The notes beneath the pieces are model-generated. The model did not search any database. It was not told the DNA's origin and worked only from the letters and a program-made list of their open reading frames with translations. Positions 1,152 through 45,995 of a stretch of 64,000 bases of DNA are shown in pieces. Every line of letters begins with the position of its first letter. Position 1 is the stretch's first letter. A program made the translations under genes and the position numbers. The DNA is from Escherichia coli (GTDB lineage Bacteria; Pseudomonadota; Gammaproteobacteria; Enterobacterales; Enterobacteriaceae), in the NCBI RefSeq assembly GCF_045037415.1, contig NZ_CP173438.1. One strand, 5' to 3'.

Positions 1152-1733
1152 TTACTTAATATCTGTTTCGGATTGCATGCCATGAGTATTCATTTCGTTA
1201 ATAATTTCATCCAGAAGGATTTCAAGCCCTTCTCGACCCATATCTGAAAGAATGAAACCTTTATCAGGGGAAGTAGTGAGCATTTTCTGATAAAGAAACA
1301 GCGCTCTTCCCATTCCTTCAGCTTCGCCGTATTTTTGAATTAAATTCCATTCAATATACTGTTGTAAGGCAAATCGAATGGGGCCGGGATATATCGTCAT
1401 AAACCCATACATCCCGTTATATACCACGGCGTGTTCAGTTGTTCCGTGTTCATTCAGGATATCAATTGTGCCGTTCTTGTCTTCTTCTTCGTTGATGAAT
1501 GTCGTCACATACAACCATCGCCACTGAGCAACCTTCATCTCAACCGGAAGTTTACCCAGTAATCCTGCTTCGTCGGCTTGCGCCAGACACTGAAGGATAC
1601 GTAAACCTCGCACATTAGGAGTATCGAATTCTCCGGCATCCAGACGACGTATGGCGTCGTGATAATCAATCGTCATACTGCCAGTTCGTATACCATTGGC
1701 TGTTGCTTCAGCCTGGAATTCATCGTATTGCAT
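1152..1733 (-). CDS. hypothetical phage early protein (193 aa)
   Basis: Long ORF in co-directional early-left cluster; no family recognised. Confidence 0.5.
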   Translation of the reverse strand: MQYDEFQAEATANGIRTGSMTIDYHDAIRRLDAGEFDTPNVRGLRILQCLAQADEAGLLGKLPVEMKVAQWRWLYVTTFINEEEDKNGTIDILNEHGTTEHAVVYNGMYGFMTIYPGPIRFALQQYIEWNLIQKYGEAEGMGRALFLYQKMLTTSPDKGFILSDMGREGLEILLDEIINEMNTHGMQSETDIK

Positions 1734-1738
1734 GATAT

Positions 1739-1921
1739 TTATTCCTCATCTTCATCTGCTGGTGCAATAACGTCATATCCTGCCTTTTCTGCAATAAACA
1801 GGAATGTTGAAAGAGTTCCTACAAGTTCATCGTCATGAACATGGCGAATGAATATTACTTTCCCGTTTTTGATGGTCAGCAATACTCTGGTTTGTTCGTG
1901 TTCTGCTGTTTTCTGATGCAT
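1739..1921 (-). CDS. hypothetical small protein (60 aa)
   Basis: Short ORF packed 5 nt upstream of 1152..1733 on same strand. Confidence 0.35.
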   Translation of the reverse strand: MHQKTAEHEQTRVLLTIKNGKVIFIRHVHDDELVGTLSTFLFIAEKAGYDVIAPADEDEE

Positions 1922-2115
1922 TATTATCTCCCGTATGCTTTACGCAGAAATAAGCAGGCAATATGCATGTAATTTTCACCGTATTGTGCAATAAGGCAGG
2001 CGGTCTTGTGTGATGCCATATTCTTTATAAAAGTCACAATAAAGCCTCCTGTGGATTAAGGTTGTAACAATCCCCGGCGATAAAACCGCAATAAACGTTC
2101 AGGGCATATTTGTTG

Positions 2116-2481
2116 TTATTGCGCTAATTCTTTTTCGGCAGCAGCTTTTGTATACTCACATGCAAAATTCAGAATTTCGCTGCCGAGTGTTTTCGTTTCG
2201 TGATTACTGGACATATGTAATACCTGTGTTGCATGCAATAAATGATAAACATTTACCGCAAATGAATCAGGCTCCAGGCAAATGCCTTCGTAATTATCTT
2301 GCTGTGAGGTTGTTTCTGTCATTGCTCCTGAAGTGCATACGAGCCTGTTTTTGACAATTCTCTTTTCTCTAATCACTATATCGGCAACATCTATTGCCTT
2401 TACAACCTCCGGGAGAAGTTCCGGGTTTGTATAATCAAAGTCATCAACATGGAGAACAGTTATGTTTTCGAACTTTTTCAT
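2116..2481 (-). CDS. hypothetical phage early protein (121 aa)
   Basis: ORF in early-left operon; no family recognised. Confidence 0.45.
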   Translation of the reverse strand: MKKFENITVLHVDDFDYTNPELLPEVVKAIDVADIVIREKRIVKNRLVCTSGAMTETTSQQDNYEGICLEPDSFAVNVYHLLHATQVLHMSSNHETKTLGSEILNFACEYTKAAAEKELAQ

Positions 2482-2609
2482 GGTTTCCTCAGCTGACTTA
2501 TATGTTCTGCTATATAGCGAGTCTCAGAAGTGTTTTCATATTAAGACTGTTTCCGCAATGATTGATAAAAATGTTCGCATGTACCTTGAGGGGCGAAGCG
2601 GCGATTATG

Positions 2610-3113
2610 TCACCATTGGTATTGGTTCTTCCGTAGAAGAGCTTCGCGAGATAAGGGGCAAACTTGTTGAGATGCGTCATGGTGTTGCTGCTCCTCACTT
2701 TTTGGTTGCTCCGGAGGAGTAACCTCACCAGTTAACAGCCACATCGCATCGCAGCCAAGAATATTTGCCAGTGGGATAAGCATACTGATAGTTGGTTCAT
2801 ACTCTCCGCTCTCCCACTGGATGATAATTTCTTCATCGAGATCGAGCAGCCTGGCGAGTTCGGCGGTTGTTAAGCCGCAGGCTTCGCGTTGGGTGCGAAG
2901 ACGGTTGTTGATTGCAGAATTTTTGTTCTGTAAAAGCATTGCTGACGATAGCTTTCTGGATATGCTATTTGTCATATCCCATGCCAGTCCTGCGCATGAC
3001 TCTATATCGCTAGAGAGCGTAGCATCAGGTGTTGCTTTTGCTATTAGTGTAATGAGGCTGCCGAGGTTTTTCAGTTCTTCGAGACAGTCAAGAGTTGTAG
3101 CTTTATTGATCAT
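2610..3113 (-). CDS. HTH (XRE/Cro-C1-type) domain protein, first gene leftward of cI operator repeats
   Basis: 167-aa ORF; ATG at 3113 with GAGG 7 nt upstream; residues ~68-128 (LRTQREACGLTTAELARLLDLDEEIIIQWESGEYEPTISMLIPLANILGCD) look like a classic HTH_XRE fold. Confidence 0.55.
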   Translation of the reverse strand: MINKATTLDCLEELKNLGSLITLIAKATPDATLSSDIESCAGLAWDMTNSISRKLSSAMLLQNKNSAINNRLRTQREACGLTTAELARLLDLDEEIIIQWESGEYEPTISMLIPLANILGCDAMWLLTGEVTPPEQPKSEEQQHHDASQQVCPLSREALLRKNQYQW

Positions 3114-3139
3114 GAGATGATACCTCAGTTACGAACTTT

Positions 3140-3200
3140 GTTTTATGGTAACTAAGGTATCAAGGTGTGGCAAGTGATTTTTGATACTTTGGTTTCTTTT
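3140..3200. promoter_or_regulatory. candidate left operator/promoter (oL-like) repeats
   Basis: GATACTTTG half-site (3187-3195) and GGTATCAAGG (3151-3160) between cI stop and next leftward gene; same half-site recurs right of cI. Confidence 0.3.
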
Positions 3201-3216
3201 TGTGTTTTGTTTCTGG

Positions 3217-3873
3217 TCAGAAAATATCCCACCTGGCATCAACCACAACACCTACTATTTCGCAATCATTGTCCATTTCTATGATTGGATATTGTGGATT
3301 AAGGGGCTTTAGAAACGCCTTTCCCATGTCAGAAATATATTTTTTGAATGTTGCTTCATTGGTAGATTTTTTTCTGGCGATGACGTAACACCCTGAAAAA
3401 ACTTCTTTATCTGGGTTGACAAGGATCGACATTCCTTCAGGAAATGTTATTCCTACGGGCGAAGTCATTGAGTCTCCGTGCACTTCCAGCCAGAACCCCC
3501 TCTCACCAGCGTATTTTACAGAATGCCTCCAATTATCCTGATCATACATGTTGTAGTCATCACCAGAAGTTGCGAATAATCCTGCCTGAACCCAGTTAAT
3601 TACAGGGTAAGAGTGTGCTGTGTCTCTCTGTGGGCAGCTCTTAACATTATTTTCCCAATGCTTATCTTTTTCATCTCCGTTCTGAAGCCACTGCGGTGAA
3701 CACCGCAGTGCAGCTGCAACTTTAAAAAGGGTGTCACCGTTGAAACTTTTTGTAAGGCCTTGCTCGGCTTTACTGATTGCAACTCTGGTGATCCCAGCTT
3801 TTTTAGCCAACGCATCTTGTGTTAACCCAGCTTTTTGCCGTGCGTTGATGAGACGTTCACCTAAAGACTTCAT
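3217..3873 (-). CDS. cI: CI-type prophage repressor (HTH + LexA-like S24 autopeptidase domain)
   Basis: MKSLGERLINARQKAGLTQDALAKKAG HTH; Ala-Gly cleavage site (VQAGLF); GDSM serine and FKKY lysine; C-terminus FLKPLNPQYPII closely resembles lambda CI; GAGGAG RBS before ATG at 3873. Confidence 0.9.
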   Translation of the reverse strand: MKSLGERLINARQKAGLTQDALAKKAGITRVAISKAEQGLTKSFNGDTLFKVAAALRCSPQWLQNGDEKDKHWENNVKSCPQRDTAHSYPVINWVQAGLFATSGDDYNMYDQDNWRHSVKYAGERGFWLEVHGDSMTSPVGITFPEGMSILVNPDKEVFSGCYVIARKKSTNEATFKKYISDMGKAFLKPLNPQYPIIEMDNDCEIVGVVVDARWDIF

Positions 3874-3889
3874 TTTTCTTCTCCTCTCA

Positions 3890-3975
3890 TGGCTGTTGAT
3901 ACTAAAGTAACAGAATTTCTTGATACTTTGGATTCCTGTGGTTAACATCGTTGAATAACAAAGTATCTGGTGTGA
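3890..3975. promoter_or_regulatory. candidate right operator/promoter region (oR-like)
   Basis: Three copies of GATACT(A/T)(A/T)(A/T)G or its complement (3899-3907, 3923-3931, 3960-3968) in the divergent region between cI and the rightward genes. Confidence 0.35.
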
Positions 3976-3984
3976 GACTAAAGA

Positions 3985-4212
3985 ATGACCCTTTATGAAA
4001 TATTAAAAATTCAATTTAAAACCAATGCCGCTATTGGTCGCAGGTTCCCAAAGAAAGGAAGGCCTCGTGGCAGTCAAGGTGTTGGAAAGTGGAAAACGCG
4101 AGGTGTTCCGGAGGATGTTGCCATTCTTTGTCATCTGGATCCGAGCATTCCATATACACACCCAAGTCTAGCGAATACAGAAGATGACAAGCCCACAGGA
4201 GACCAACAATGA
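3985..4212 (+). CDS. small basic protein in the Cro position (not recognisably Cro)
   Basis: 75-aa ORF starting right after the operator repeats; very basic (GRRFPKKGRPRGSQGVGKWKTRG); no HTH recognised; stop overlaps next start. Confidence 0.3.
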   Translation: MTLYEILKIQFKTNAAIGRRFPKKGRPRGSQGVGKWKTRGVPEDVAILCHLDPSIPYTHPSLANTEDDKPTGDQQ

Positions 4213-4916
4213 ACACCGCAATTTTTAACGGCAAAGCATCCATGACCAGCGTTGAGATCGCAGAGCTGGTGGGAAGCCGACCAGATAGTGTTAAGAGAAC
4301 TATTGAAACACTGGCTAAAAAGGGAATCATCCAATTTCCACAGACTGTGGAAATTGAGAATAAACAATCACTTGGGCCTCGCCGATTTTCTAGCGCGTAT
4401 GTATTCGAAGGTGAACGAGGTAAGCGCGACAGCATCATTGTCGTCGCACAGCTCTGTCCTGAATTCACAGCTCGCCTGGTAGATCGCTGGCGCGAACTGG
4501 AAGAACAGATCCGTAAGCCAATGAGCGAAATCGAAATGGTTGCCGCGATGGCTCTTGAAGCCGTTCGCCAACAGAAACGGATCACTCAGGTGGAAGAAAA
4601 AGTCAGCCACGTTGCTGAAACAGTCGAGCAAATTAAAAAGGGCACTATTCGTGAGGGCTATGCCGGATATCGCCAACTGAAAGCAAAAACCGGTTTGTCA
4701 GATGATAAATGCCGCAATCTGGTGAACGCCTATCAAATTCCTACAGACACACATGAGTTCATGACGCCGGACGGATTGTTGTCACGTCGCGCAATTGTTG
4801 CTGTGGAACCGTTTATGGCTGCTTTTTATCGGGTTATGGAGGAAGCAGAACCGCGAGGGACTCGCTGGTATCACCCGAAAATGGGGTTATTTCAGGTTAT
4901 TGGTTGGCAGCGGTGA
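4209..4916 (+). CDS. phage regulatory protein, Rha-like N-terminal region
   Basis: 235-aa ORF; MTSVEIAELVGSRPDSVKRTIETLAKKG resembles the Rha-domain HTH pattern seen in the ORF at 5685. Confidence 0.45.
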   Translation: MNTAIFNGKASMTSVEIAELVGSRPDSVKRTIETLAKKGIIQFPQTVEIENKQSLGPRRFSSAYVFEGERGKRDSIIVVAQLCPEFTARLVDRWRELEEQIRKPMSEIEMVAAMALEAVRQQKRITQVEEKVSHVAETVEQIKKGTIREGYAGYRQLKAKTGLSDDKCRNLVNAYQIPTDTHEFMTPDGLLSRRAIVAVEPFMAAFYRVMEEAEPRGTRWYHPKMGLFQVIGWQR

Positions 4917-5024
4917 AAAAAAGCCGGGAGTAACCCGGCTCACTCAACATCAATAACGGGGAGCTGTTTCGCATAAAACGGCTCCGAAACATCCAAGAAC
5001 AGTTCTAAAGATATCAGCAGCTAT

Positions 5025-5688
5025 ATGATCATTTCAAGACCAAATATTGATTCTGCAATTTCGGGACGTTACACTGTCTCCGCACCTTATAAAGCGGGTG
5101 CCGGGATTGGCGTCCTGAAATTGTCAACGGCGATGTATGACGCGCCAGCGTCTTTTTTATCGTCCGCATTTGCTCACATCCAGATTATGGTGGGCTGGGC
5201 GGGGGCACCGAAAGGTGCGCCGGTTCTCCGTTGACGCCGGTTACGCCAACCCCGTCCAGTTCACCACCAGTGAAATTGGCGTTTCCGGTGGTGGAAGTTT
5301 TTCACTGTCAACGGAGGCTGCCATCATGGCTACTGTCCTAACTTCCCCATTCCTAAAAATCGAAGTCGTCAACGGCAAGGCCGTTATTTTCTCCCTGCAT
5401 GTTGCCTGCCATTTCAAGCGCATGCACCAGAACATCGTTGACAAAATCGAGTATCTGAACTGCTCACGCGAGTTTTTTACCCGCAATTTCATACCGGGTA
5501 CTTATCACATCTACGGTGACTCCCTGCGTGGTTATTACATCACCCTTGATGGTCTGATGATGCTTCAGCTTGGGTTAAGTCTGCGCACAATGCGGTACTA
5601 CGAGAGCTGTATTGAAGCATTCCATGAGGCTGAAACCGTCCAGGGTCACTCCGCGTTCCGTCGTAATCAACGGGAGGTGCACCTATGA
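5025..5688 (+). pseudogene. Rha-family paralog, copy A, frameshifted between N-terminal extension and Rha domain
   Basis: 5025..5234 and 5137..5688 are in different frames; together they parallel the single 283-aa ORF at 5685 (shared IDSAI.GRYT..APYKAGAG start, Rha-like VNGKAVIFSLHVACHFKRMHQNIVDKI body); net +1 indel ~5180-5235. Confidence 0.4.
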
Positions 5689-35696: not shown

Positions 35697-38600
35697 ATGG
35701 GAAAAGGTGGCGGTAAGGCACACACGCCTCGTGAGGCGAAGGATAATCTCAAATCCACGCAGATGATGAGTGTGATTGATGCGATTGGTGAGGGACCGAT
35801 AGAAGGTCCGGTGAAGGGACTGCAGAGTATTCTGGTGAACAAAACCCCACTGACGGACACGGACGGCAATCCCGTGATACACGGTGTGACGGCGGTCTGG
35901 CGCGCCGGGGAGCAGGAGCAGACACCACCGGAAGGCTTTGAGTCCTCCGGAGCTGAAACCGGACTGGGCGTGGAAGTGACGAAGGCAAAACCGGTGACGC
36001 GCACCATTACGTCCGCGAACATTGACCGCCTGCGGGTTACCTTCGGGGTGCAGTCACTGGTGGAGACCACCTCAAAGGGTGACCGTAACCCGGCATCCGT
36101 CCGCCTGCTGATTCAGTTACAGCGTAACGGTAACTGGGTGACAGAAAAGGACGTCACCATTAACGGCAAGACCACCTCACAGTTCCTGGCCTCGGTGATT
36201 CTGGATAATCTGCCTCCCCGGCCCTTTAACATCCGGATGGTCAGGGAGACGGCGGACAGCACCACGGACCAGCTGCAGAATAAGACGCTGTGGTCGTCAT
36301 ACACCGAAATCATCGATGTGAAACAGTGCTACCCGAACACGGCCATTGTGGGGCTGCAGGTGGATGCGGAGCAGTTCGGCGGCCAGCAGATGACGGTGAA
36401 CTACCATATCCGCGGTCGCATCATCCAGGTGCCGTCAAACTATGACCCGGAAAAACGCACGTACAGTGGTATCTGGGACGGCAGTCTGAAACCGGCATAC
36501 AGCAACAACCCGGCCTGGTGCCTGTGGGACATGCTGACTCACCCGCGCTACGGCATGGGAAAACGTCTGGGGCGGCGGATGTGGACAAGTGGGCGCTGTA
36601 TGCCATCGGGCAGTACTGCGACCAGACGGTCCCGGATGGTTTCGGGGGGACCGAGCCGCGGATGACCTTTAATGCGTACCTGGCACAACAGCGTAAGGCG
36701 TGGGACGTTCTCAGTGATTTCTGCTCTGCGATGCGCTGTATGCCGGTATGGAACGGTCAGACGCTGACGTTCGTTCAGGACCGCCCGTCGGATGTGGTGT
36801 GGCCGTACACCAACAGCGATGTGGTGGTGGATGATAACGGCGTGGGATTCCGCTACAGCTTCAGTGCCCTGAAGGACCGGCACACGGCGGTGGAGGTGAA
36901 TTACACCGACCCGCAGAACGGCTGGCAGACCTCCACGGAACTGGTGGAAGACCCGGAAGCCATACTGCGCTACGGACGCAACCTGCTGAAGATGGACGCG
37001 TTCGGCTGTACCAGCCGCGGTCAGGCCCACCGTGCCGGACTGTGGGTGATAAAGACCGAACTGCTGGAAACGCAGACGGTGGATTTCACGCTCGGGTTCT
37101 CAGGGGCTGCGGCACACACCCGGTGACATTATTGAAATCTGTGATAATGACTATGCCGGGACCCTGACCGGCGGACGTGTCCTGTCCATTGATGCTGCCA
37201 CCCGCACCCTGACGCTGGACCGTGAGGTTACCCTGCCGGAGACAGGTACATCGGCGGTGAACCTGATTAACGGCAGCGGTAAGCCGGTGAGTGTGGACAT
37301 CACCGCACACCCCGCGCCGGACCGGATACAGGTCAGTACCCTGCCTGATGGTGTGGAGACATACGGGGTGTGGGGACTCTCCCTGCCGTCACTGCGCCGT
37401 CGCCTGTTCCGCTGTGTCTCCATCCGGGAAAACACGGACGGCACCTTTGCCATCACGGCGGTGCAGCACGTACCGGAAAAAGAAGCCATCGTGGATAACG
37501 GTGCCCGCTTTGAGCCGCAGTCAGGTTCCCTGAACAGCGTCATCCCACCGGCAGTGCAGCACCTGACGGTGGAGGTGAGCGCAGCTGACGGCCAGTATCT
37601 GGCGCAGGCGAAATGGGACACGCCGCGGGTGGTGAAGGGTGTGTGCTTCAGTCTGCGCCTGACCAGTGGTAAGGGAACGGATGCCAGACTGGTGACCACC
37701 GCCATCACCGCAGACACGGAGCACCGTTTCAGCGGCCTGCCGCTCGGGGAATACACCCTGACGGTGCGGGCGATAAACAGCTATGGCCAGCAGGGTGAAC
37801 CTGCCACCACCACCTTCCGGATTACCGCACCGGCAGCACCGTCGCGGATTGAGCTGACGCCGGGCTATTTTCAGATAACCGCAACGCCACATCTTGCCGT
37901 TTATGACCCGACGGTACAGTTTGAGTTCTGGTTCTCGGAAAAGCGGATTGCGGATATCAGGCAGGTTGAAACCGCAGCCCGCTATCTTGGCTCGGCGCTG
38001 TACTGGATAGCTGCCAGTATCAATATCAAACCGGGCCATGATTATTATTTTTATATCCGCAGTGTGAATACTGTTGGCAAATCGGCATTCGTGGAGGCTG
38101 TCGGTCGGGCGAGCGATGATGCGGAAGGTTACCTGGATTTTTTCAAAGGAGAAATCGGGAAAACACATCTGGCCCAGGAGCTGTGGACGCAGATTGATAA
38201 CGGTCAGCTTGCGCCGGACCTGGCTGAAATCAGGACGTCCATTACGAATGTCAGCAATGAAATCACGCAGACCGTCAATAAAAAACTGGAAAATCAGAGT
38301 GCGGCAATCCAGCAGATACAGAAAGTTCAGGTTGATACAAATAATAACCTGAACAGCATGTGGGCCGTGAAACTGCAGCAGATGCAGGACGGACGCCTTT
38401 ATATTGCGGGTATCGGTGCCGGTATTGAGAATACGCCAGCAGGAATGCAGAGTCAGGTGCTGCTGGCGGCAGACAGGATTGCGATGATTAATCCTGCGAA
38501 TGGCAACACAAAGCCGATGTTTGTTGGTCAGGGCGATCAGATATTTATGAATGAAGTGTTCCTGAAATATCTGACGGCTCCCACCATTACCAGCGGCGGT

Positions 38601-39170
38601 AATCCTCCGGCATTTTCCCTGACACCGGACGGGCGGCTGACGGCGAAAAATGCCGATATCAGCGGTAACGTGAATGCGAACTCCGGGACGCTCAACAACG
38701 TCACGATTAACGAGAACTGTCGGGTTCTGGGAAAATTGTCCGCGAACCAGATTGAAGGCGATCTCGTTAAAACAGTGGGCAAAGCTTTCCCCCGGGACTC
38801 CCGTGCACCGGAGCGGTGGCCATCAGGAACCATTACCGTCAGGGTTTATGACGATCAGCCGTTTGACCGGCAGATTGTTATTCCGGCGGTGGCATTCAGC
38901 GGCGCTAAACATGAGAAAGAGCATACTGATATTTACTCCTCATGCCGTCTGATAGTGCGGAAAAACGGTGCTGAAATTTATAACCGTACCGCGCTGGATA
39001 ATACGCTGATTTACAGTGGTGTTATTGATATGCCTGCCGGTCACGGTCACATGACACTGGAGTTTTCGGTGTCAGCATGGCTGGTAAATAACTGGTATCC
39101 CACAGCAAGTATCAGCGATTTGCTGGTTGTGGTGATGAAGAAAGCCACTGCAGGCATCACGATTAGCTGA
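35697..39170 (+). pseudogene. J: tail tip fibre / host specificity protein J, interrupted by two frameshifts
   Basis: Three ORFs (35697..36665, 36518..37126, 37257..39170) together collinear with lambda J; first and third share a frame, middle segment is shifted; 1-nt loss in G-run 36569-36572, 1-nt gain at ~37097-37103. Confidence 0.8.
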
Positions 39171-39237
39171 ATTTTATAACCCAGATACGGGCGCCAGAAA
39201 TGGCGCCTTTTTTATTGCAGAAAAGCGAGAGGTAATT

Positions 39238-39837
39238 ATGCGTAAATTATGTGCTGTTATTTTGTCCGCAGTAGTCTGGCAGGTCGCCGCTGCTACGCCA
39301 GCGAGTGCAGCAGAACATCAGTCCACGCTGAGCGCGGGGTATCTCCATGCCTCGACGAACGTTCCCGGTAGTGATGATCTGAACGGGATTAACGTGAAAT
39401 ACCGTTATGAGTTTACGGACGCGCTGGGGCTGATTACGTCCTTCAGTTATGCCAATGCTGAGGATGAGCAAAAAACGCGCTACAGCGATACCCGCTGGCA
39501 TGAAGATTCCGTGCGTAACCGCTGGTTCAGCGTGATGGCGGGGCCGTCTGTACGCGTGAATGAATGGTTCAGCGCGTATGCGATGGCGGGTGTGGCTTAC
39601 AGCCGTGTGTCGACTTTCTCCGGGGATTATCTCCGCGTAACTGACAACAAGGGGAAAACGCACGATGTGCTGACCGGAAGTGATGACGGTCGCCACAGCA
39701 ACACGTCTCTGGCGTGGGGGGCTGGCGTGCAGTTTAACCCGACCGAATCCGTGACCATTGACCTTGCTTATGAAGGTTCCGGTAGTGGCGACTGGCGAAC
39801 GGATGCATTTATTGTTGGTATCGGATACCGTTTCTGA
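39238..39837 (+). CDS. lom: Lom/Ail-family outer membrane beta-barrel protein
   Basis: Signal peptide, alternating beta-strand pattern, C-terminal aromatic (GIGYRF); position after J as in lambda. Confidence 0.8.
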   Translation: MRKLCAVILSAVVWQVAAATPASAAEHQSTLSAGYLHASTNVPGSDDLNGINVKYRYEFTDALGLITSFSYANAEDEQKTRYSDTRWHEDSVRNRWFSVMAGPSVRVNEWFSAYAMAGVAYSRVSTFSGDYLRVTDNKGKTHDVLTGSDDGRHSNTSLAWGAGVQFNPTESVTIDLAYEGSGSGDWRTDAFIVGIGYRF

Positions 39838-39987
39838 CAACAGACGCCGATTTATCTTCTGTAAATATTGTTATGATACGCAGGTTCATCCACCTTATGG
39901 GGTGAACTGCGTTTGAGGAAACGTAAAGTTACACTGTCCTGAAGCCCGTGGCGTCACTGCTGCGGGCTTTTTTATTGGTGGAAAAGT

Positions 39988-42900
39988 ATGACAGTAAAAA
40001 TTTCTGGCGTGCTTAAAGATGGCACAGGAAAACCAGTACAGAACTGCACCATTGTGCTGAAGGCCAGACGAACCAGCAGCACGGTGGTGGTGAACACGGT
40101 GGCCTCTGAAAATCCGGATGAAGCCGGACGTTACAGCATGGATGTTGAGCATGGTCAGTACAGCGTCACCCTGCTGGTTGAAGGTTTTCCGCCTTCACAT
40201 GCCGGGACCATTACCGTCTATGAAGGTTCCAGACCAGGTACGCTGAATGATTTTCTCGGTGCCATGACGGAGGATGATGTCCGACCGGAGGCACTGCGCC
40301 GCTTTGAGCAGATGGTGGAAGAGGTGTCACGTAACGCCTCCGCGGTTGCACAGAATACGGCAGCCGCGAAAAAATCAGCCAGCGATGCCAGTGCATCAGC
40401 CAGCGAGGCGGCAACTCATGCAACCGATGCTGCAGCCTCAGCACGTGCCGCCAGCACGTCAGCCGGACAGGCCGCGTCGTCGGCTCAGTCAGCGTCTTCC
40501 AGCGCAGGAACGGCATCGACAAAGGCCCGTGAAGCAGCAAAAAGTGCTGCTGCTGCAGAGTCATCAAAAAGCGCGGCAGCTACCAGCGCCAGTGCCGCGA
40601 AAACGTCAGAAACGAATGCCGCAGCATCACAAAAATCGGCAGCCACTTCTGCATCCACAGCGACCACGAAGGCGTCAGAAGCTGCCACCTCGGCACGGGG
40701 TGCGGCGGCCTCAAAAGAGGCAGCGAAATCTTCAGAAACGAATGCATCATCAAGTGCCAGTAGTGCAGCTTCCTCGGCAACGGCGGCAGGAAATTCCGCG
40801 AAGGCGGCAAAAACGTCCGAGACGAACGCTAAGTCTTCTGAAACAGCAGCGGGACAGAGCGCCTCAGCTGCGGCAGGTTCAAAAACAGCGGCTGCATTAT
40901 CTGCCAGTGCCGCGTCAACAAGTGCCGGGCTGGCCTCAGCCAGTGCCACCGCCGCCGGAAAATCGGCAGAAAGCGCCGCATCATCCGCTTCAACAGCCAC
41001 AACGAAGGCTGGCAAAGCCACTGAGCAAGCCACTGCAGCAGCGAGGTCTGCTTCTGCAGCAAAAACCTCTGAAACAAATGCAAAGACTTCAGCAGACAAT
41101 GCTGCTTCCTCTAAGGCGGCAGCCGCATCGTCAGCCAGTTCAGCGGCGTCATCGGCATCATCTGCGTCTGCTTCAAAAGATGAGGCGACCAGACAAGCGT
41201 CAGCAGCGAAAGGTAGTGCCACGACAGCAACAACGAAAGCATCAGAGGCGGCAGGCAGTGCGACGGCTGCATCTCAGAGCAAAGTTGCTGCTGAATCCGC
41301 GGCAACGCGCGCTGAGATAGCGGCAAAACGGGCAGAGGATATTGCATCCGCCGTGGCGCTTGAGGATGCGAGCACGACGAAAAAGGGGATAGTACAGCTC
41401 AGTAGTGCGACTAACAGCACTTCCGAGTCACTGGCGGCAACACCAAAAGCCGTTAAGGCCGCGTATGACCTGGCTAGCGGGAAATACACCGCACAGGATG
41501 CAACGACAGCACAGAAAGGGATAATCCAGCTAAGCAGCGCGACCAACAGCACGTCTGAAACGCTGGCGGCAACGCCAAAGGCAGTAAAAGCAGCCAATGA
41601 CAATGCTGAGAAACGTCTGCAGAAAGATCAGAACGGTGCGGATATCCCTGGCAAAGACACCTTTACGAAAAATATTGGTGCCTGCCGTGCCTTCGGTGGG
41701 TCAGTAAGCACAACAACAGGAAACTGGACGACTGCACAGTTTATCGAGTGGCTGGATTCTCAGGGAGCATTTAACCATCCATACTGGATGTGCAAGGGTT
41801 CCTGGTCTTATGGCAATAATAAAATCATTACTGATACTGGCTGCGGTAATATTCATCTCGCCGGAGCTGTCATTGAAGTAATGGGGATAAAGTCAGCGAT
41901 GACGATCCGCATTACCACTCCGACCACATCCAGCGGTGGCGGAACAACCAACGCCCAGTTTACCTATATTAATCACGGAACAGATTATTCACCTGGCTGG
42001 CGAAGGGACTATAACTCCAGAAATAAGCCAACGGCATCAGAGATCGGGGCGCTACCGTCAGGTGGAACAGCAGTATCATCAGTTAATCTGGCTTCAAAAG
42101 GTCGGGTAGCCGCGCTGACAGACAATACGCAGGGGGCAGCAGGTCTTGAGTTATACGAGGTGTATAACAACGGATATCCAACAACGTATGGAAATATCAT
42201 TCACCTGAAAGGGATGACAGCCGTTGGCGAAGGTGAGTTACTCATCGGCTGGAGTGGTACAAGCGGTGCTCATGCTCCGGCATTTATTCGTTCACGACGG
42301 GATACGACCGACGCAAACTGGTCGCCGTGGGCGCAGCTTTACACCTCGGCTCATCCTCCTGCAGAGTTTTATCCAGTCGGTGCACCAATCCCGTGGCCAT
42401 CAGATACCGTTCCGTCTGGTTATGTCCTGATGCAGGGGCAGACTTTTGACAAATCTGCATACCCGAAACTTGCAGCCGCTTATCCGTCAGGCGTGATCCC
42501 TGATATGCGTGGCTGGACGATTAAGGGCAAACCTGCCAGTGGTCGGGCCGTATTGTCTCAGGAACAGGACGGCATTAAATCGCACACCCACAGCGCCAGC
42601 GCATCCAGTACGGATTTGGGGACGAAAACCACATCGTCGTTTGATTACGGCACTAAATCCACGAATAACATCGGGGCGCATACGCACAGTGTGAGCGGTA
42701 CAGCCGCAAGTGCCGGAAACCATACTCATAGTGTCACAGGCGCATCAGCAGTCAGCCAGTGGTCACAAAATGGGTCAGTACATAAGGTAGTGTCTGCGGC
42801 CAGTGTGAATACAAGTGCTGCAGGAGCGCACACTCATAGTGTCAGCGGCACAGCTGCATCTGCAGGTGCTCACGCACATACTGTCGGTATTGGTGCTCAT

Positions 42901-43014
42901 ACGCACTCGGTTGCGATTGGCTCACATGGACACACCATCACCGTTAACGCTGCTGGTAACGCGGAAAACACCGTCAAAAACATCGCATTTAACTATATTG
43001 TGAGGCTTGCATGA
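39988..43014 (+). CDS. stf: side tail fibre protein Stf (Ala/Ser-rich repeat shaft, His-box C-terminus)
   Basis: 1008 aa; N-terminus like lambda Stf; long low-complexity A/S/T-rich shaft; C-terminus with HTHS/HAHT repeats ending [18 protein letters not shown] as in lambda Stf. Confidence 0.85.
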
Positions 43015-43913
43015 TTACGCTCATTCTTTCTGCACCAGTAACCGAAATGGCTGAAGCATTTAAGCGGGTATTTGCAAATGCAGATAATGTGAATATTGTC
43101 GGAAAGCCATTTGAAACAATCAGAGAATTTGACTGCATGGTAAGTGCGGCAAATAGTTTCGGCCTGATGGATGGCGGTGTTGATGCCGCCATTACCACAT
43201 TCTTCGGTTCTCAGCTACAGGCCCGCGTTCAGAATCATATTCTTCGTGAATATCTCGGCGAGCAGCCTGTAGGTTCTGCATTTGTTATTGAAACGGGGCA
43301 TAATTATCACCCCTGGCTGGTACATGCGCCAACAATGCGTGTTCCGTTGACAATTGACGGAACAGACGCTGTATATAACGCAACTTGGGCAGCTCTACTT
43401 GCTATCTTTCAGCACAATAAAAACGCAACGACAGACAGGAAAATAAAGACGGTGGTATTCCCTGCAATGGGAGCCGGATGTGGTCAGGTGCCGTTTGAAA
43501 GCGTTGCCCGGCAGATGAAGCAGGCATGGGATAACTTTAATAAAAAAACAGAATCAATTAACTGGGAATACGCACAATCCCGCCAGTCGGCAGTATTTGG
43601 CACATATGCATACTGTCCGGGTAATTCTGTTTGCCGTTATGCGGATACTAAATATATTGGATGCGGCGATTATCGGACGTATTGCTCACGCTCCGGGCAG
43701 GTCTGTATTAACCCTGAACATCAGGCTGATGATGTACTGATACAACATCAGGCTAATAACCGGTTTCGCCCTGGTTCGCATATACACCGGATTAATCCAG
43801 AAAATCCTGTAGGTAATGTCATCTCTGGCGCACATAGCCACGGAAGTAGCATCGTTATTGGTGCTCACACCCATACGCTCAATAAACAATATTCTGTCTC
43901 TGATATTAAGTAG
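43011..43913 (+). CDS. macro-domain protein with tail-fibre-like His-box C-terminus
   Basis: ATGA overlap with stf; residues ~40-190 carry macro-domain blocks ([51 protein letters not shown]) by comparison with recalled E. coli YmdB; last ~45 aa ([18 protein letters not shown]) resemble fibre tips. Confidence 0.55.
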
Positions 43914-44618: not shown

Positions 44619-45995
44619 CTATGATATCCCTGAAATGTCCTCTTCAAGCTCTTTTACTGATTTCGCAATTTTAAATTTAAATTTTCTCTCTATTTCACTA
44701 TTGCTAAGTTTTTTTTCATTCTCTTTCCCTATCCACATAGAAACAATTTCTCGTTTCTGAGATATATGTAGATTGTCAAAGTTAGGTATGTATTTAAAAG
44801 TCTCCGCTCTACCCCTGCGGAGTTCATAGAAAGTTTTAATCAAAGACTTTGGTTTTATTTCTGATGAAAGGCCGAATCGGCGGATAAGATTATTGATCGT
44901 ATGATTAACAGCTCGAAGTTGAGCTGTTGACGTTATTTGTGAGAAGTACGATACCCATCCCAATCGTTTACCTTCAAACACACATCCCGTAATTCTAAGA
45001 TTTAGTTTCCACTGACAATATGCAACAGCTCGTTCTTTATCGTGCTTATTTTTAGCTTGTAGTAGAGCGTGTCTATATGCAGTAAAAATTTTTGCTAAGG
45101 ATGACTCAAATCTAAGAATGCTCTCATGTTTTATCAATAATTCTCGATTTTTTATGTGGTAGCCCAAAAAGTTGAAACTTTCATCCAAGCTGCCTACTTT
45201 GGATTTTGAGTTCTCTTCATTTAATGGATGTGGGTTTAAATTTAATGATTGAAGCTTATCAATGATATGAGATGCAATTTTTGTTGCTTGATCTTTTTGC
45301 GTTAAAATAAGAATGTCATCAACGTATCGCATGTACCATATGTCATGCATTTTATTGATTTCATTGTCGAAATCAGATAGTGATATTTCAGCTAAAATGT
45401 TTGATATTGCTAACCCCTGAGGTACTCCTCTGGTATTATTAGGGACACCTTTGCTTCCTGTACTTCCACTTACAGTAGGCACGATTAATGATGATGTTAT
45501 TAACTGCCTAATTTCTTTTTTTCTAATCTTATTTTTTATTGCATTAAATATCAATTTATGTTCAATTGAAGGATAGAAACTTTTGAGATCTATTTTTGCA
45601 TATTCAGCATATAGATCGCTGTTTAATGCATTTTTCAATAAGTCAATTACTGTATGTGGTAGTTTTAATCTGGAGTTAGGATATATTTCTGTAAGGCATT
45701 CACAGAGAGCCCTAAGGGTAATTCTGTCCCTGGCAGTTGGTATGGAAATCTGTCTGGGGATAGAGTTAGCCCCTTTAGATATTAATTTTTCTTTATATGC
45801 TGTAAATTTATAATTTCCACAATTAACCTTTTCAAAAATAAAAGTGATCTCATTCTTTATTGTTAAATCAAGTTTTGATGGACGAATCCGATCTATGCCA
45901 ATCGCTCCTGATTCTTTGATTTTTTCATTGTATACTTTTAGAAGGTTTTTTTTCGAGAATGACTTTTTAAAAACTCTGCTTGCATTCATAGTCAA
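44619..45995 (-). CDS. reverse transcriptase (defence-associated / retron-like type), with C-terminal extension
   Basis: 458 aa; RT blocks RQISIPTARDRITLRAL, YAKIDLKSFYPSIEH, GVPQGLAISNILAEISL, catalytic YVDD (YMRYVDDILILT); AT-rich codon usage. Confidence 0.8.
   Translation of the reverse strand: MTMNASRVFKKSFSKKNLLKVYNEKIKESGAIGIDRIRPSKLDLTIKNEITFIFEKVNCGNYKFTAYKEKLISKGANSIPRQISIPTARDRITLRALCECLTEIYPNSRLKLPHTVIDLLKNALNSDLYAEYAKIDLKSFYPSIEHKLIFNAIKNKIRKKEIRQLITSSLIVPTVSGSTGSKGVPNNTRGVPQGLAISNILAEISLSDFDNEINKMHDIWYMRYVDDILILTQKDQATKIASHIIDKLQSLNLNPHPLNEENSKSKVGSLDESFNFLGYHIKNRELLIKHESILRFESSLAKIFTAYRHALLQAKNKHDKERAVAYCQWKLNLRITGCVFEGKRLGWVSYFSQITSTAQLRAVNHTINNLIRRFGLSSEIKPKSLIKTFYELRRGRAETFKYIPNFDNLHISQKREIVSMWIGKENEKKLSNSEIERKFKFKIAKSVKELEEDISGIS

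Follow-up and report, generated by a model that had tools for sequence, protein, structure and literature searches.

The window analysed in this work is a 64,000-nt stretch of Escherichia coli DNA (NCBI RefSeq assembly GCF_045037415.1, contig NZ_CP173438.1), in which the side tail fibre gene stf (1008 aa) occupies positions 39988-43014 of the + strand, as identified from the ORF list, Pfam and a RefSeq CDS identical to it ('prophage tail fiber N-terminal domain-containing protein'). The host context of the gene is an E. coli ST131 prophage. Local gene order is J C-terminus, lom (Ail_Lom), stf and tfa (Caudo_TAP), as expected for a lambda-type Stf, with one departure: a macro-domain gene is inserted downstream of stf, ahead of tfa. 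A PADLOC search with the macro-domain protein returned no match, and nothing specific was found in the literature on macro domains in tail-fibre cassettes. Pfam domains in the protein are phage_tail_N (aa 1-134, E = 5.6e-70), two copies of Phage_fiber_2, Collar and Phage_fiber. Judged by its sequence, the product is a lambda-type side tail fibre (Stf; PF08400 family); homology to lambda agrees with an earlier note on this DNA, which had named the gene stf and the repetitive tract within it the shaft. By analogy with lambda, the protein would form a trimer on the tail tip and speed adsorption. In the identical RefSeq prophage, which represents the lineage of this strain, gpJ is annotated as frameshifted, and the prophage may be defective and this Stf never assembled.

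The features of stf all lie on the + strand. The putative collar/anchor domain StfN (aa 1-91) and linker (aa 92-101) at 39988-40290 were assigned by homology to Ur-lambda gpStf, using PDB 9e7m, the domain limits given in PMC12617516 and colinearity with lambda orf-401; in a PDB sequence search, the 9e7m chain 'Tail fiber protein' (Ur-lambda) matched Stf aa 1-94 with E = 3e-47. Two canonical hydrophobic heptads (40285-40326) open a predicted coiled coil and are followed by an Ala/Ser/Thr heptad tract of ~49 heptads (aa 114-457; 40327-41358). Distal to the tract, and outside it, lie two 44-aa Phage_fiber_2 repeats at 41363-41601, seen as a 132-nt direct repeat (74% identical) and as two copies of PF03406 (aa ~465-546, E = 8.7e-36; a repeat of ~42 aa bearing the family motif). 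These are followed by a domain (aa 539-722; 41602-42153) that resembles tail fibre protein S of phage Mu, identified from PDB 8ju3 (E = 1.6e-85 overall and 6.9e-69 for the alignment of the Mu-S-like domain), and by a T4 gp37-like receptor-binding tip with HxH repeats (aa 794-1008; 42367-43011), identified from PDB 2xgf (E = 1.3e-86).

Heptad repeat of the shaft tract

Limits of the tract were set as a single-register Viterbi segment of a heptad-tracking model, which refined the ~40330-41350 of the earlier note, and are backed by periodicity, column composition, AF2 helices and lambda homology. Ala, Ser and Thr together make up 66-78% of residues in each 50-aa block from aa 151 to 450 and 54% in aa 101-150, compared to 11-52% outside the tract (~0.2-0.3 as a fraction in globular parts, 0.42-0.52 in flanking repeat regions). 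One heptad register, with the consensus A-[TS]-S-A-[ST]-A-A, is held without a break across 344 aa, and at fixed heptad phases Ala fills 47 of 48 positions (the last consensus position), Ala 35 of 48 and Ser 37 of 48. In the heptad stack, L/F and V/V at aa 100-113 occupy the same two phases that Ala holds downstream. Residue-identity autocorrelation gave z = 6.5-10.8 at all lags divisible by 7 as far as lag 119 and stayed at chance level or lower at nearly all others, and Fourier analysis gave peaks at exactly 7.0 and 3.5 residues. The internal periodicity that the earlier note had proposed to look for is therefore strong; its description of the tract as degenerate, low-complexity repeats holds as to repetitiveness and fails as to shapeless degeneracy, the repeat being register-perfect. 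Among the long tracts of the StfN family, 45 of 56 likewise hold one register. A super-repeat of 77 aa (11 heptads), to which the lag with the strongest autocorrelation pointed, was considered and rejected: identity at that lag, 0.468, scarcely exceeds the value of the best-scoring lag after heptads were shuffled (0.447 +/- 0.013), and the four units of 77 aa are only 38-56% identical to one another.

The repeat belongs to the protein and not to the DNA. Tandem Repeats Finder (TRF), run on 39500-43500, found no 21-nt array and just two small ones (12-nt and 9-nt). Periodicity of 21 nt in the DNA (z = 6.2) is wholly accounted for by the protein repeat. The longest exact direct repeat in the tract is 14 nt (12.4 +/- 1.4 in codon shuffles), and mean unit-to-unit DNA identity is 0.436, at the level expected under synonymous-codon resampling (0.437 +/- 0.005), so the tract gives no sign of slippage-prone DNA.

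The tract as a predicted coiled-coil rod

The tract very probably makes up the proximal rod of the side tail fibre, which would be a trimer of lambda type. Its counterpart in the Ur-lambda Stf trimer is the 'proximal coiled-coil domain', a feature described in 2025 and thus already known; gpStf there comprises StfN (1-91), a linker (92-101) and a proximal coiled coil (102-393) (PMC12617516). Ur-lambda gpStf (774 aa, lambda orf-401 plus orf-314) has in common with this Stf the N-terminal collar domain, the J-lom-stf-tfa position and a T4-gp37-like C-terminal tip. It differs in that this Stf adds a second Phage_fiber_2 repeat and carries the Mu-S-like domain in place of lambda's middle part, and in the macro-domain gene between stf and tfa here. 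From homology to the Ur-lambda cryo-EM, cryo-ET and AlphaFold3 model we infer that three parallel chains would wind into an alpha-helical coiled coil, the core of which would be nearly all Ala (positions a and d being the 35-of-48 and 47-of-48 columns, respectively), with serine beside the core and the two canonical hydrophobic heptads at the N-terminal start. At ~0.15 nm for each of 344 residues, such a rod would act as a stiff spacer of ~50 nm, keeping the distal Mu-S-like and T4-gp37-like receptor-binding parts apart from the N-terminal collar domain, which would clamp the fibre to the tail tip.

An AF2 single-chain model predicts helix across aa 95-475, with pLDDT mostly 70-90. The model bends back on itself, an artefact of single-chain folding, and a Foldseek search with it against the PDB gave no match, an outcome to be expected of a long helix that doubles back in this manner. 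In the PDB sequence search no solved structure covered the tract; matches were confined to aa 1-94 and the distal domains, apart from a marginal hit on the T7 gp17 shaft (7boz, E = 0.0075).

Ala in place of Leu or Ile is atypical for the core of a stable coiled coil. Here the a/d core phases carry Ala and not Leu, Ile or Val, canonical hydrophobics being limited to the first two heptads. Alanine-zipper trimers, e.g. the E. coli Braun lipoprotein Lpp-56, are parallel three-stranded coiled coils with small core residues, and a core filled chiefly by Ala is compatible with this type. Lpp-56 and the T7 gp17 shaft serve as analogies only, with no demonstrated homology, and the present tract is far longer than either (~49 heptads) and almost exclusively Ala at both core positions. 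On a more speculative reading, a core made wholly of alanine might lend the rod unusual mechanical behaviour.

The extreme Ala/Ser/Thr composition and the near absence of large hydrophobics from core positions, together with the low pTM of the AF2 monomer model (0.26) and some low-confidence stretches in it, could also be read as marks of an intrinsically disordered, low-complexity flexible tether. We regard this as very unlikely, because a linker would leave unexplained how 344 residues come to keep an exact 7.0/3.5 period and an unvarying column of Ala. Single-register tracts in 45 of the 56 family members argue against it as well, as do AF2 helix throughout and the observation of the homologous lambda region as a rod-like trimeric coiled coil in cryo-EM and cryo-ET (PMC12617516). 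Read as the proximal rod, the stf tract is an ordinary feature that leaves the current view of side tail fibres unchanged and is of modest practical value.

Length variation and mosaic breakpoints

The length of the shaft varies between homologues, as the earlier note had thought possible. For comparison to lambda, the sequence was taken from NC_001416; a family representative of 774 aa (P0147) had been considered as a stand-in for lambda and was dropped, as its C-terminal tip differs from lambda's. In global alignment, lambda orf-401 is colinear with this Stf at aa 1-303 and 409-499, over the same heptads, and the intervening 105 aa (aa 304-408; 40897-41211, + strand) have no counterpart in lambda, which is shorter by this one in-register gap of exactly 15 heptads (15 x 7). 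The 105-aa segment is present in 23 phage records, including Cyrano and CMS-2020a, with at least 80% of it in 21; its carriers are a subset of lambdoid phages plus two phages of ~108 kb. Across the StfN family, tract length ranges from 0 to 344 aa, and candidate length classes of ~33, 34 and 49 heptads, with approximate tract ends, are seen among family representatives. The 344-aa tract also occurs in four StfN/PF08400 family representatives, and StfR of the E. coli K-12 Rac prophage falls in the same length class.

Among 120 clusters of close homologues, 81 match the length of this protein exactly and 39 depart from it (span 274-347 aa). In-register indels in this set were of -70 and -28 aa; with the lambda gap, in-register changes amount to -4, -10 and -15 heptads. 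The small change in length seen most often falls at a 9-nt mini-array (TCATCGGCG x 3.2; 41140-41168, + strand, found by TRF) that encodes ASS-ASS-ASS: at query aa 387, 12 clusters lack 3 aa and 3 clusters have 3 aa more. One Phage_fiber_2 copy is absent (-44 aa) in 18 of the 120, and a third indel hot spot lies in the distal tip at aa ~915-941 (+8, +16 and +6 aa). Indels that are not multiples of 7 (-3, +3, +/-1, -6, -24 and others) occur in 34 of the 120 close homologues, so either a strict register is dispensable or those copies are decaying.

Nearly identical and moderately diverged copies are stable in length. At least 40 ST131-type genomes are 100% identical over the 3027 nt, these being the top-ranked among 69 records that reach >=99% identity to the stf query and 53 that do so to the tract query, in a ranking that places full-length perfect matches first; copy number does not differ among these 40 best-ranked genomes. 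No gap occurs in the alignments of six phages (86-94% identity) or of K-12 stfR, which is 88.9% identical across nt 1-1270 of the tract-region query. Among the matches listed (60 of 11,890 places in 5,426 E. coli genomes), full-length matches to this length class, drawn from a set of ~3,600 genomes, were gapless.

Breaks in homology cluster in the tract and at its edges. Of 43 family representatives, 35 lose colinearity with this Stf between aa 100 and 349, and sampled alignments to genomes and phages frequently end near aa 117, 185, 280, 438 and ~492. StfR and the PF08400 family carry distal receptor-binding modules unlike those of this Stf, identity ending at ~aa 490. The ~108-kb phages Cyrano and CMS-2020a have a tail fibre 'S-like' protein that shares aa 185-489 of this Stf at 84-88% DNA identity, i.e. 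the central heptad tract and the first fibre repeat, and differs from it in the N-terminal attachment region and distal parts. Because that match starts within the tract, it is direct evidence of a crossover inside it.

The differences in length accordingly seem to stem from recombination among diverged alleles of prophages, with rare in-frame indels, and not from a hypermutable array. At least 80% of the tract region is carried by 3,567 of 5,426 E. coli genomes. With tract DNA kept at ~85-94% identity in the prophages of most E. coli genomes, the tract may serve as a homologous crossover zone, and crossovers there would join different distal receptor-binding modules to one tail-attachment domain. 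Since the heptads of such a rod would be equivalent, whole units could be gained or lost with neither end disturbed. About 2/3 of complete E. coli genomes carry the tract region at >=85% identity, which makes it a plausible shared crossover zone for host-range modules. N-terminal parts of lambda Stf are functional when joined to foreign C-terminal parts (PMC11338833), and lambda-based delivery vehicles already use Stf chimeras; for work of this kind, the heptad register and the natural junctions (~aa 117, 185, 280, 303/408, 438 and 492) mark splice points, and fibres could be extended by 7-residue steps.

Shaft length might also be a selected, quantised trait, with heptad number tuned to the reach of the tip through O-antigen or capsule, or relative to the central fibre J, and with synonymous codons scrambled by selection against internal deletion of a 1-kb repeat. 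We consider this doubtful. On another reading, the tract would be a VNTR or contingency-type locus, a tandem repeat of DNA made hypermutable in copy number by frequent slippage or unequal crossing-over within the gene. Homologues do differ in length, and changes of +/-3 aa do recur at the ASS mini-array, but such a locus is hard to reconcile with the missing 21-nt array, with exact repeats no longer than 14 nt and unit identity at the synonymous-resampling level, with at least 40 ST131 genomes the same in length and sequence, or with gapless copies at 86-94% identity and 81 of 120 clusters of equal length, and its probability is very low. In unit-to-unit DNA identity, and in copy number among the 40 best-ranked genomes, the tract does not have the properties of a hypervariable VNTR. 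Of the earlier suggestion that the array is recombination-prone, the recombination part thus stands, in the concentration of mosaic breakpoints in and at the edges of the tract, and a slippage-prone DNA does not.

Reading frames overlapping the tract

Long ORFs other than stf overlap the tract on both strands, as the earlier note had observed, with lengths of 348 aa on the + strand and 245, 118, 109, 84, 78 and 76 aa on the - strand. From the ORF list and stop counts, the 348-aa ORF (40274-41320, + strand) lies in the +1 frame and is Pro/Arg/Gln-rich, and the 245-aa antisense ORF (40485-41222, - strand) is the counterpart of lambda orf206b and phi458 Orf45; both were classed as spurious. Stops between 40330 and 41350 number 0 in the stf frame, 1 in +1, 12 in +2, 3 and 3 in two antisense frames and 29 in the codon-aligned antisense frame, meaning that four frames are open and two closed, and not all six open as had been claimed. 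The alternative frames are open because of the GCN/TCN/ACN codon composition: codon shuffles predict 1.7-1.9 stops in the +1 frame (1 seen) and ~2 in the 245-aa antisense frame (3 seen). Of nucleotide differences between homologues, 70-75% affect third codon positions in the stf frame, and in the 348-aa ORF most substitutions hit codon position 2 of that ORF.

A real overlapping gene, such as the 245-aa antisense ORF, was weighed in light of these counts. That ORF is open in lambda, in phi458 and in 6 of 6 compared phages, and antisense wobble positions coincide with stf wobble, so the position-3 bias does not exclude an antisense gene; its stops are nevertheless at expectation, and its predicted product is an A/D/E/F/V low-complexity string. 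In a first test, transversions were scarcer at sites with two-fold degeneracy in antisense (P = 0.02), but the deficit tracks the neighbouring base (0 transversions at the 28 sites that precede AC/AG codons, four-fold degenerate when read in antisense) and vanished after sites were split by the following base, on which basis antisense selection was rejected. In another antisense frame, 10.3 stops were expected and 3 seen; this deficit reflects avoidance of CT|A codon junctions and is just as strong in distal, non-repetitive stf sequence (10.6 expected, 3 seen). By stop counts and substitution tests, antisense frames in the tract thus show no constraint beyond composition, and it is almost certain that none of these ORFs is a gene.

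The long alternative ORFs are artefacts, and they constitute an annotation trap. Homologous antisense ORFs are annotated as genes in two phage records (lambda orf206b and phi458 Orf45), and long ORFs of both strands have entered public records, sometimes replacing stf; the stf frame should mask such calls.

Heptad register of the Stf rod

The side tail fibre gene stf (39988-43014, plus strand, 1008 aa) lies in the order C-terminal part of J, lom, stf, a 300-aa macro-domain ORF and tfa, and its sequence recurs with 100% identity in a prophage on the chromosome of E. coli ST131 strains (e.g. THO-003). The exact allele is present in RefSeq, where the CDS is named 'prophage tail fiber N-terminal domain-containing protein'. 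Pfam matches comprised phage_tail_N (aa 1-134, E = 5.6e-70), two Phage_fiber_2 repeats (~aa 465-546), a Collar domain (aa 798-845) and HxH 'Phage_fiber' repeats near the C-terminus. Judged by comparison with solved structures in the PDB, Stf is a mosaic, with matches to an Ur-lambda tail fibre chain (9e7m; aa 1-94, E = 3e-47), phage Mu tail fibre S (8ju3, 5yvq; aa 491-722) and the T4 gp37 tip (2xgf; aa 794-1008, E = 1.3e-86); none of the solved structures searched with Stf spans aa 114-457.

That interval (nt 40327-41358) forms an Ala/Ser/Thr-rich tract, in which the combined share of these residues is 66-78% per 50-aa block over aa 151-450 and 54% in aa 101-150, versus 11-52% elsewhere, in line with the tract position proposed in the earlier note. 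The tract is more than a compositional bias and has a true heptad periodicity. Residue-identity autocorrelation exceeded shuffles by 6.5-10.8 SD at each multiple of 7, to lag 119, and was at chance level or lower at nearly all other lags, and Ala gave Fourier peaks at exactly 3.5 and 7.0 residues. Stacked in sevens, the sequence has the consensus A-[TS]-S-A-[ST]-A-A, with fixed phases occupied by Ala in 47/48 and 35/48 heptads and by Ser in 37/48. The two heptads just N-terminal of the tract carry Leu/Phe and Val/Val in its two Ala phases, which marks these as core positions a and d. A heptad-tracking Viterbi model returned a single unbroken register over aa 114-457 (344 residues, ~49 heptads).

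Lambda orf-401 and the query are colinear at query aa 1-303 and 409-499, and the sole difference over the aligned part is an additional 105 residues (exactly 15 heptads) in the query, aa 304-408. By this alignment, the tract is the homologue of the lambda proximal coiled coil, extended in register. Coiled-coil geometry gives ~0.15 nm per residue, so that the 344 residues here correspond to roughly 50 nm and the 239 of the lambda tract to ~35 nm. An AF2 model of one chain (aa 93-560) was helical over aa 95-475 (pLDDT mostly 70-90), with helices folding back onto one another, an artefact to be expected when one chain of a trimer is modelled; Ur-lambda gpStf is a trimer with StfN at residues 1-91, a linker at 92-101 and the proximal coiled coil at 102-393, twelve StfN copies build the collar at the gpV-gpM junction, and AlphaFold3 on full-length gpStf met the same fold-back problem (Yu et al. 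2025, PMC12617516). The gene for the central tail fibre, gpJ, is annotated in RefSeq as a frameshifted pseudogene (positions 1712-5184 of the identical prophage locus, L001; window ~35699-39171), only a 637-aa C-terminal J ORF being present (37257-39170); the prophage may be defective, so that the fibre encoded by this allele may at present not be built into particles.

Repetition in protein, not DNA, and length variation

Tract DNA showed a 21-nt periodicity (z = 6.2 versus codon shuffles). Mean pairwise identity of the 21-nt units was 0.436, versus 0.437 +/- 0.005 when the same protein was encoded with random synonymous codons, and the longest exact direct repeat was 14 nt, versus 12.4 +/- 1.4 in shuffles. 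The full sets of four Ala and six Ser codons occur in the tract. The repetition thus follows from the protein sequence, and the gene lacks long identical stretches at which slippage, or homologous recombination within it, could occur. The earlier note's description of a repeat array was right as to the repetition and missed the tract's two defining points, an exact heptad register and the absence of a DNA-level repeat. Scrambled codon usage may guard the rod against deletion.

The best 40 E. coli genome matches were 100% identical across 3027 nt, six phages at 86-94% identity aligned to stf nt 1-1482 without gaps, the alignment of K-12 stfR was likewise gap-free (88.9%), and 81 of 120 close protein clusters had exactly the present tract length. 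These data agree with the tract not being a DNA repeat prone to slippage. Separately, a 63-nt patch at 41058-41121 (aa 358-378) carries 21-24 differences from each of the six otherwise 86-94% identical phages, a density two to ten times that of neighbouring windows, and may be a small gene-conversion patch within the tract.

Length variation among homologues, anticipated in the earlier note, was found in the other 39 clusters (274-347 aa). Two large deletions were in register (-70 and -28 aa), and out-of-register indels were -3 (12 clusters), +3 (5 clusters), +/-1, +/-2, -6, -12, -24 and -34, the -3/+3 changes falling mainly at a small 9-nt (ASS)n array (41140-41168). Outside the tract, indels in the 120 clusters gathered in two other repeat regions, Phage_fiber_2 (one 44-aa copy lost in 18 clusters) and the C-terminal HxH repeats, with only two in the remaining ~450 residues. 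Among the best 150 of 708 StfN family representatives (E <= 0.001), the tract spanned 0-344 aa, placing the present gene at the upper extreme; the median was 133 aa in the 82 representatives at least 400 aa long, and one register was kept in 45 of 56 tracts with at least 100 heptad residues. The number of heptads may be both quantised and tuned as a trait.

Reading frames overlapping the tract

The outline of the earlier note stands, except for its statement that all six frames are open: over 40330-41350, stop counts were 0 in the stf frame, 1 and 12 in the +1 and +2 frames, 3 and 3 in two antisense frames and 29 in the codon-aligned antisense frame. Long alternative ORFs do exist as strings, of 348 aa on the plus strand (40274-41320) and of 245 (40485-41222), 118, 109, 84, 78 and 76 aa on the minus strand. 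Counterparts are annotated as genes in lambda (orf206b; L010, NC_001416, 1248-1868) and phi458 (Orf44-46; L008, OP434518.1, 3937-5408), where Orf45 is a 738-nt minus-strand 'hypothetical protein' and the real stf is uncalled across the tract; such labels on phantom ORFs are annotation errors worth flagging.

Stop counts in four of the five alternative frames were reproduced by codon shuffles and protein-preserving synonymous permutations. The fifth, antisense, had 3 stops versus 10.3 +/- 2.5 expected, a deficit rejected as a tract-specific signal because the underlying avoidance of CT/A codon junctions is equally strong in non-repetitive distal stf (3 versus 10.6). Across stf (39988-43011) and the J C-terminus (37257-39167), NCT/A junctions (out-of-frame CTA) fell three- to four-fold short of the number expected under synonymous permutation (tract, 3 versus 10.3; distal stf, as above; J, 1 versus 3.7), other T/A junctions were not depleted, and CTAG was absent from the tract; this rarity probably reflects general E. 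coli CTA/CTAG avoidance.

In the gap-free six-phage alignment, 70-75% of tract nucleotide differences fell at stf codon position 3. The 245-aa antisense frame was tested separately, since it shares wobble positions with stf. Transversions appeared scarcer at sites two-fold degenerate in that frame (P = 0.02), and antisense selection was rejected, the deficit being accounted for by the base that comes next: 0/28 transversions were seen at sites preceding AC and AG codons, which are four-fold degenerate in antisense.

Probable recombination at the rod, and the adjoining genes

Of the 5,426 complete E. coli genomes searched, 3,567 carried the tract region, often in multiple copies, at megablast sensitivity (an identity of about 85% or more) and with >= 80% of the 1301-nt query covered. 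In a breakpoint map drawn from the phage and lambda alignments and from 60 sampled rows of this genome search, which is indicative and not exhaustive, alignments ended recurrently at ~aa 117 (tract start), aa 185 (first match of the ~108-kb phages Cyrano and CMS-2020a), aa 280 (PhiR70_1, mEp460 and others), aa 303/408 (lambda junctions), aa 438 and ~aa 492 (within the first fibre repeat). Colinear identity to the query stopped within aa 100-349 in 35 of 43 StfN-sharing family representatives, although some of the breaks may reflect in-register indels and not an exchange of modules. From these alignment ends, the rod appears to behave as a seam where modules for attachment and for receptor binding re-assort. 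Mosaic exchange of fibre segments among lambdoid, Mu-like and T4-like phages is described in the older tail-fibre literature, and precedent is already known for every element here, including the Stf family and domain scheme, the lambda proximal coiled coil and phantom ORFs. A seam at the rod is consistent with the Stf chimeras that have been engineered and function in practice (lambda-P2, -K1F, -K5 and -KL106; PMC11338833).

The macro-domain ORF (43011-43913, plus strand; Pfam Macro at aa 44-169, E = 5.9e-19) lies exactly between stf and tfa and overlaps stf by an ATGA stop/start. In five related lambdoid phages tfa directly follows stf; the order tail fibre, macro, tfa recurs in Gifsy-1 (lambdoid) and Salmonella phage SEN5 (P2-like), which suggests that the macro gene moves as part of the distal fibre cassette. 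Its C-terminus bears GAHxH motifs resembling the iron-binding HxH repeats of a gp37-type tip, a motif-level likeness only (BLASTP E = 7e-4). PADLOC gave no match for the protein and no literature on the gene was found; possible roles are those of a fibre accessory, a chaperone or a moron.

At the prophage end, adjoining yecD and aspS, a reverse transcriptase is encoded on the strand opposite stf (44619-45995, minus) and matches the PADLOC model RT_UG17 (DRT class, E = 8.4e-159). RefSeq pairs this enzyme with a SLATT-domain protein, whose gene lies upstream on the minus strand (L001 11980-12531), and the pair looks like anti-phage defence cargo.
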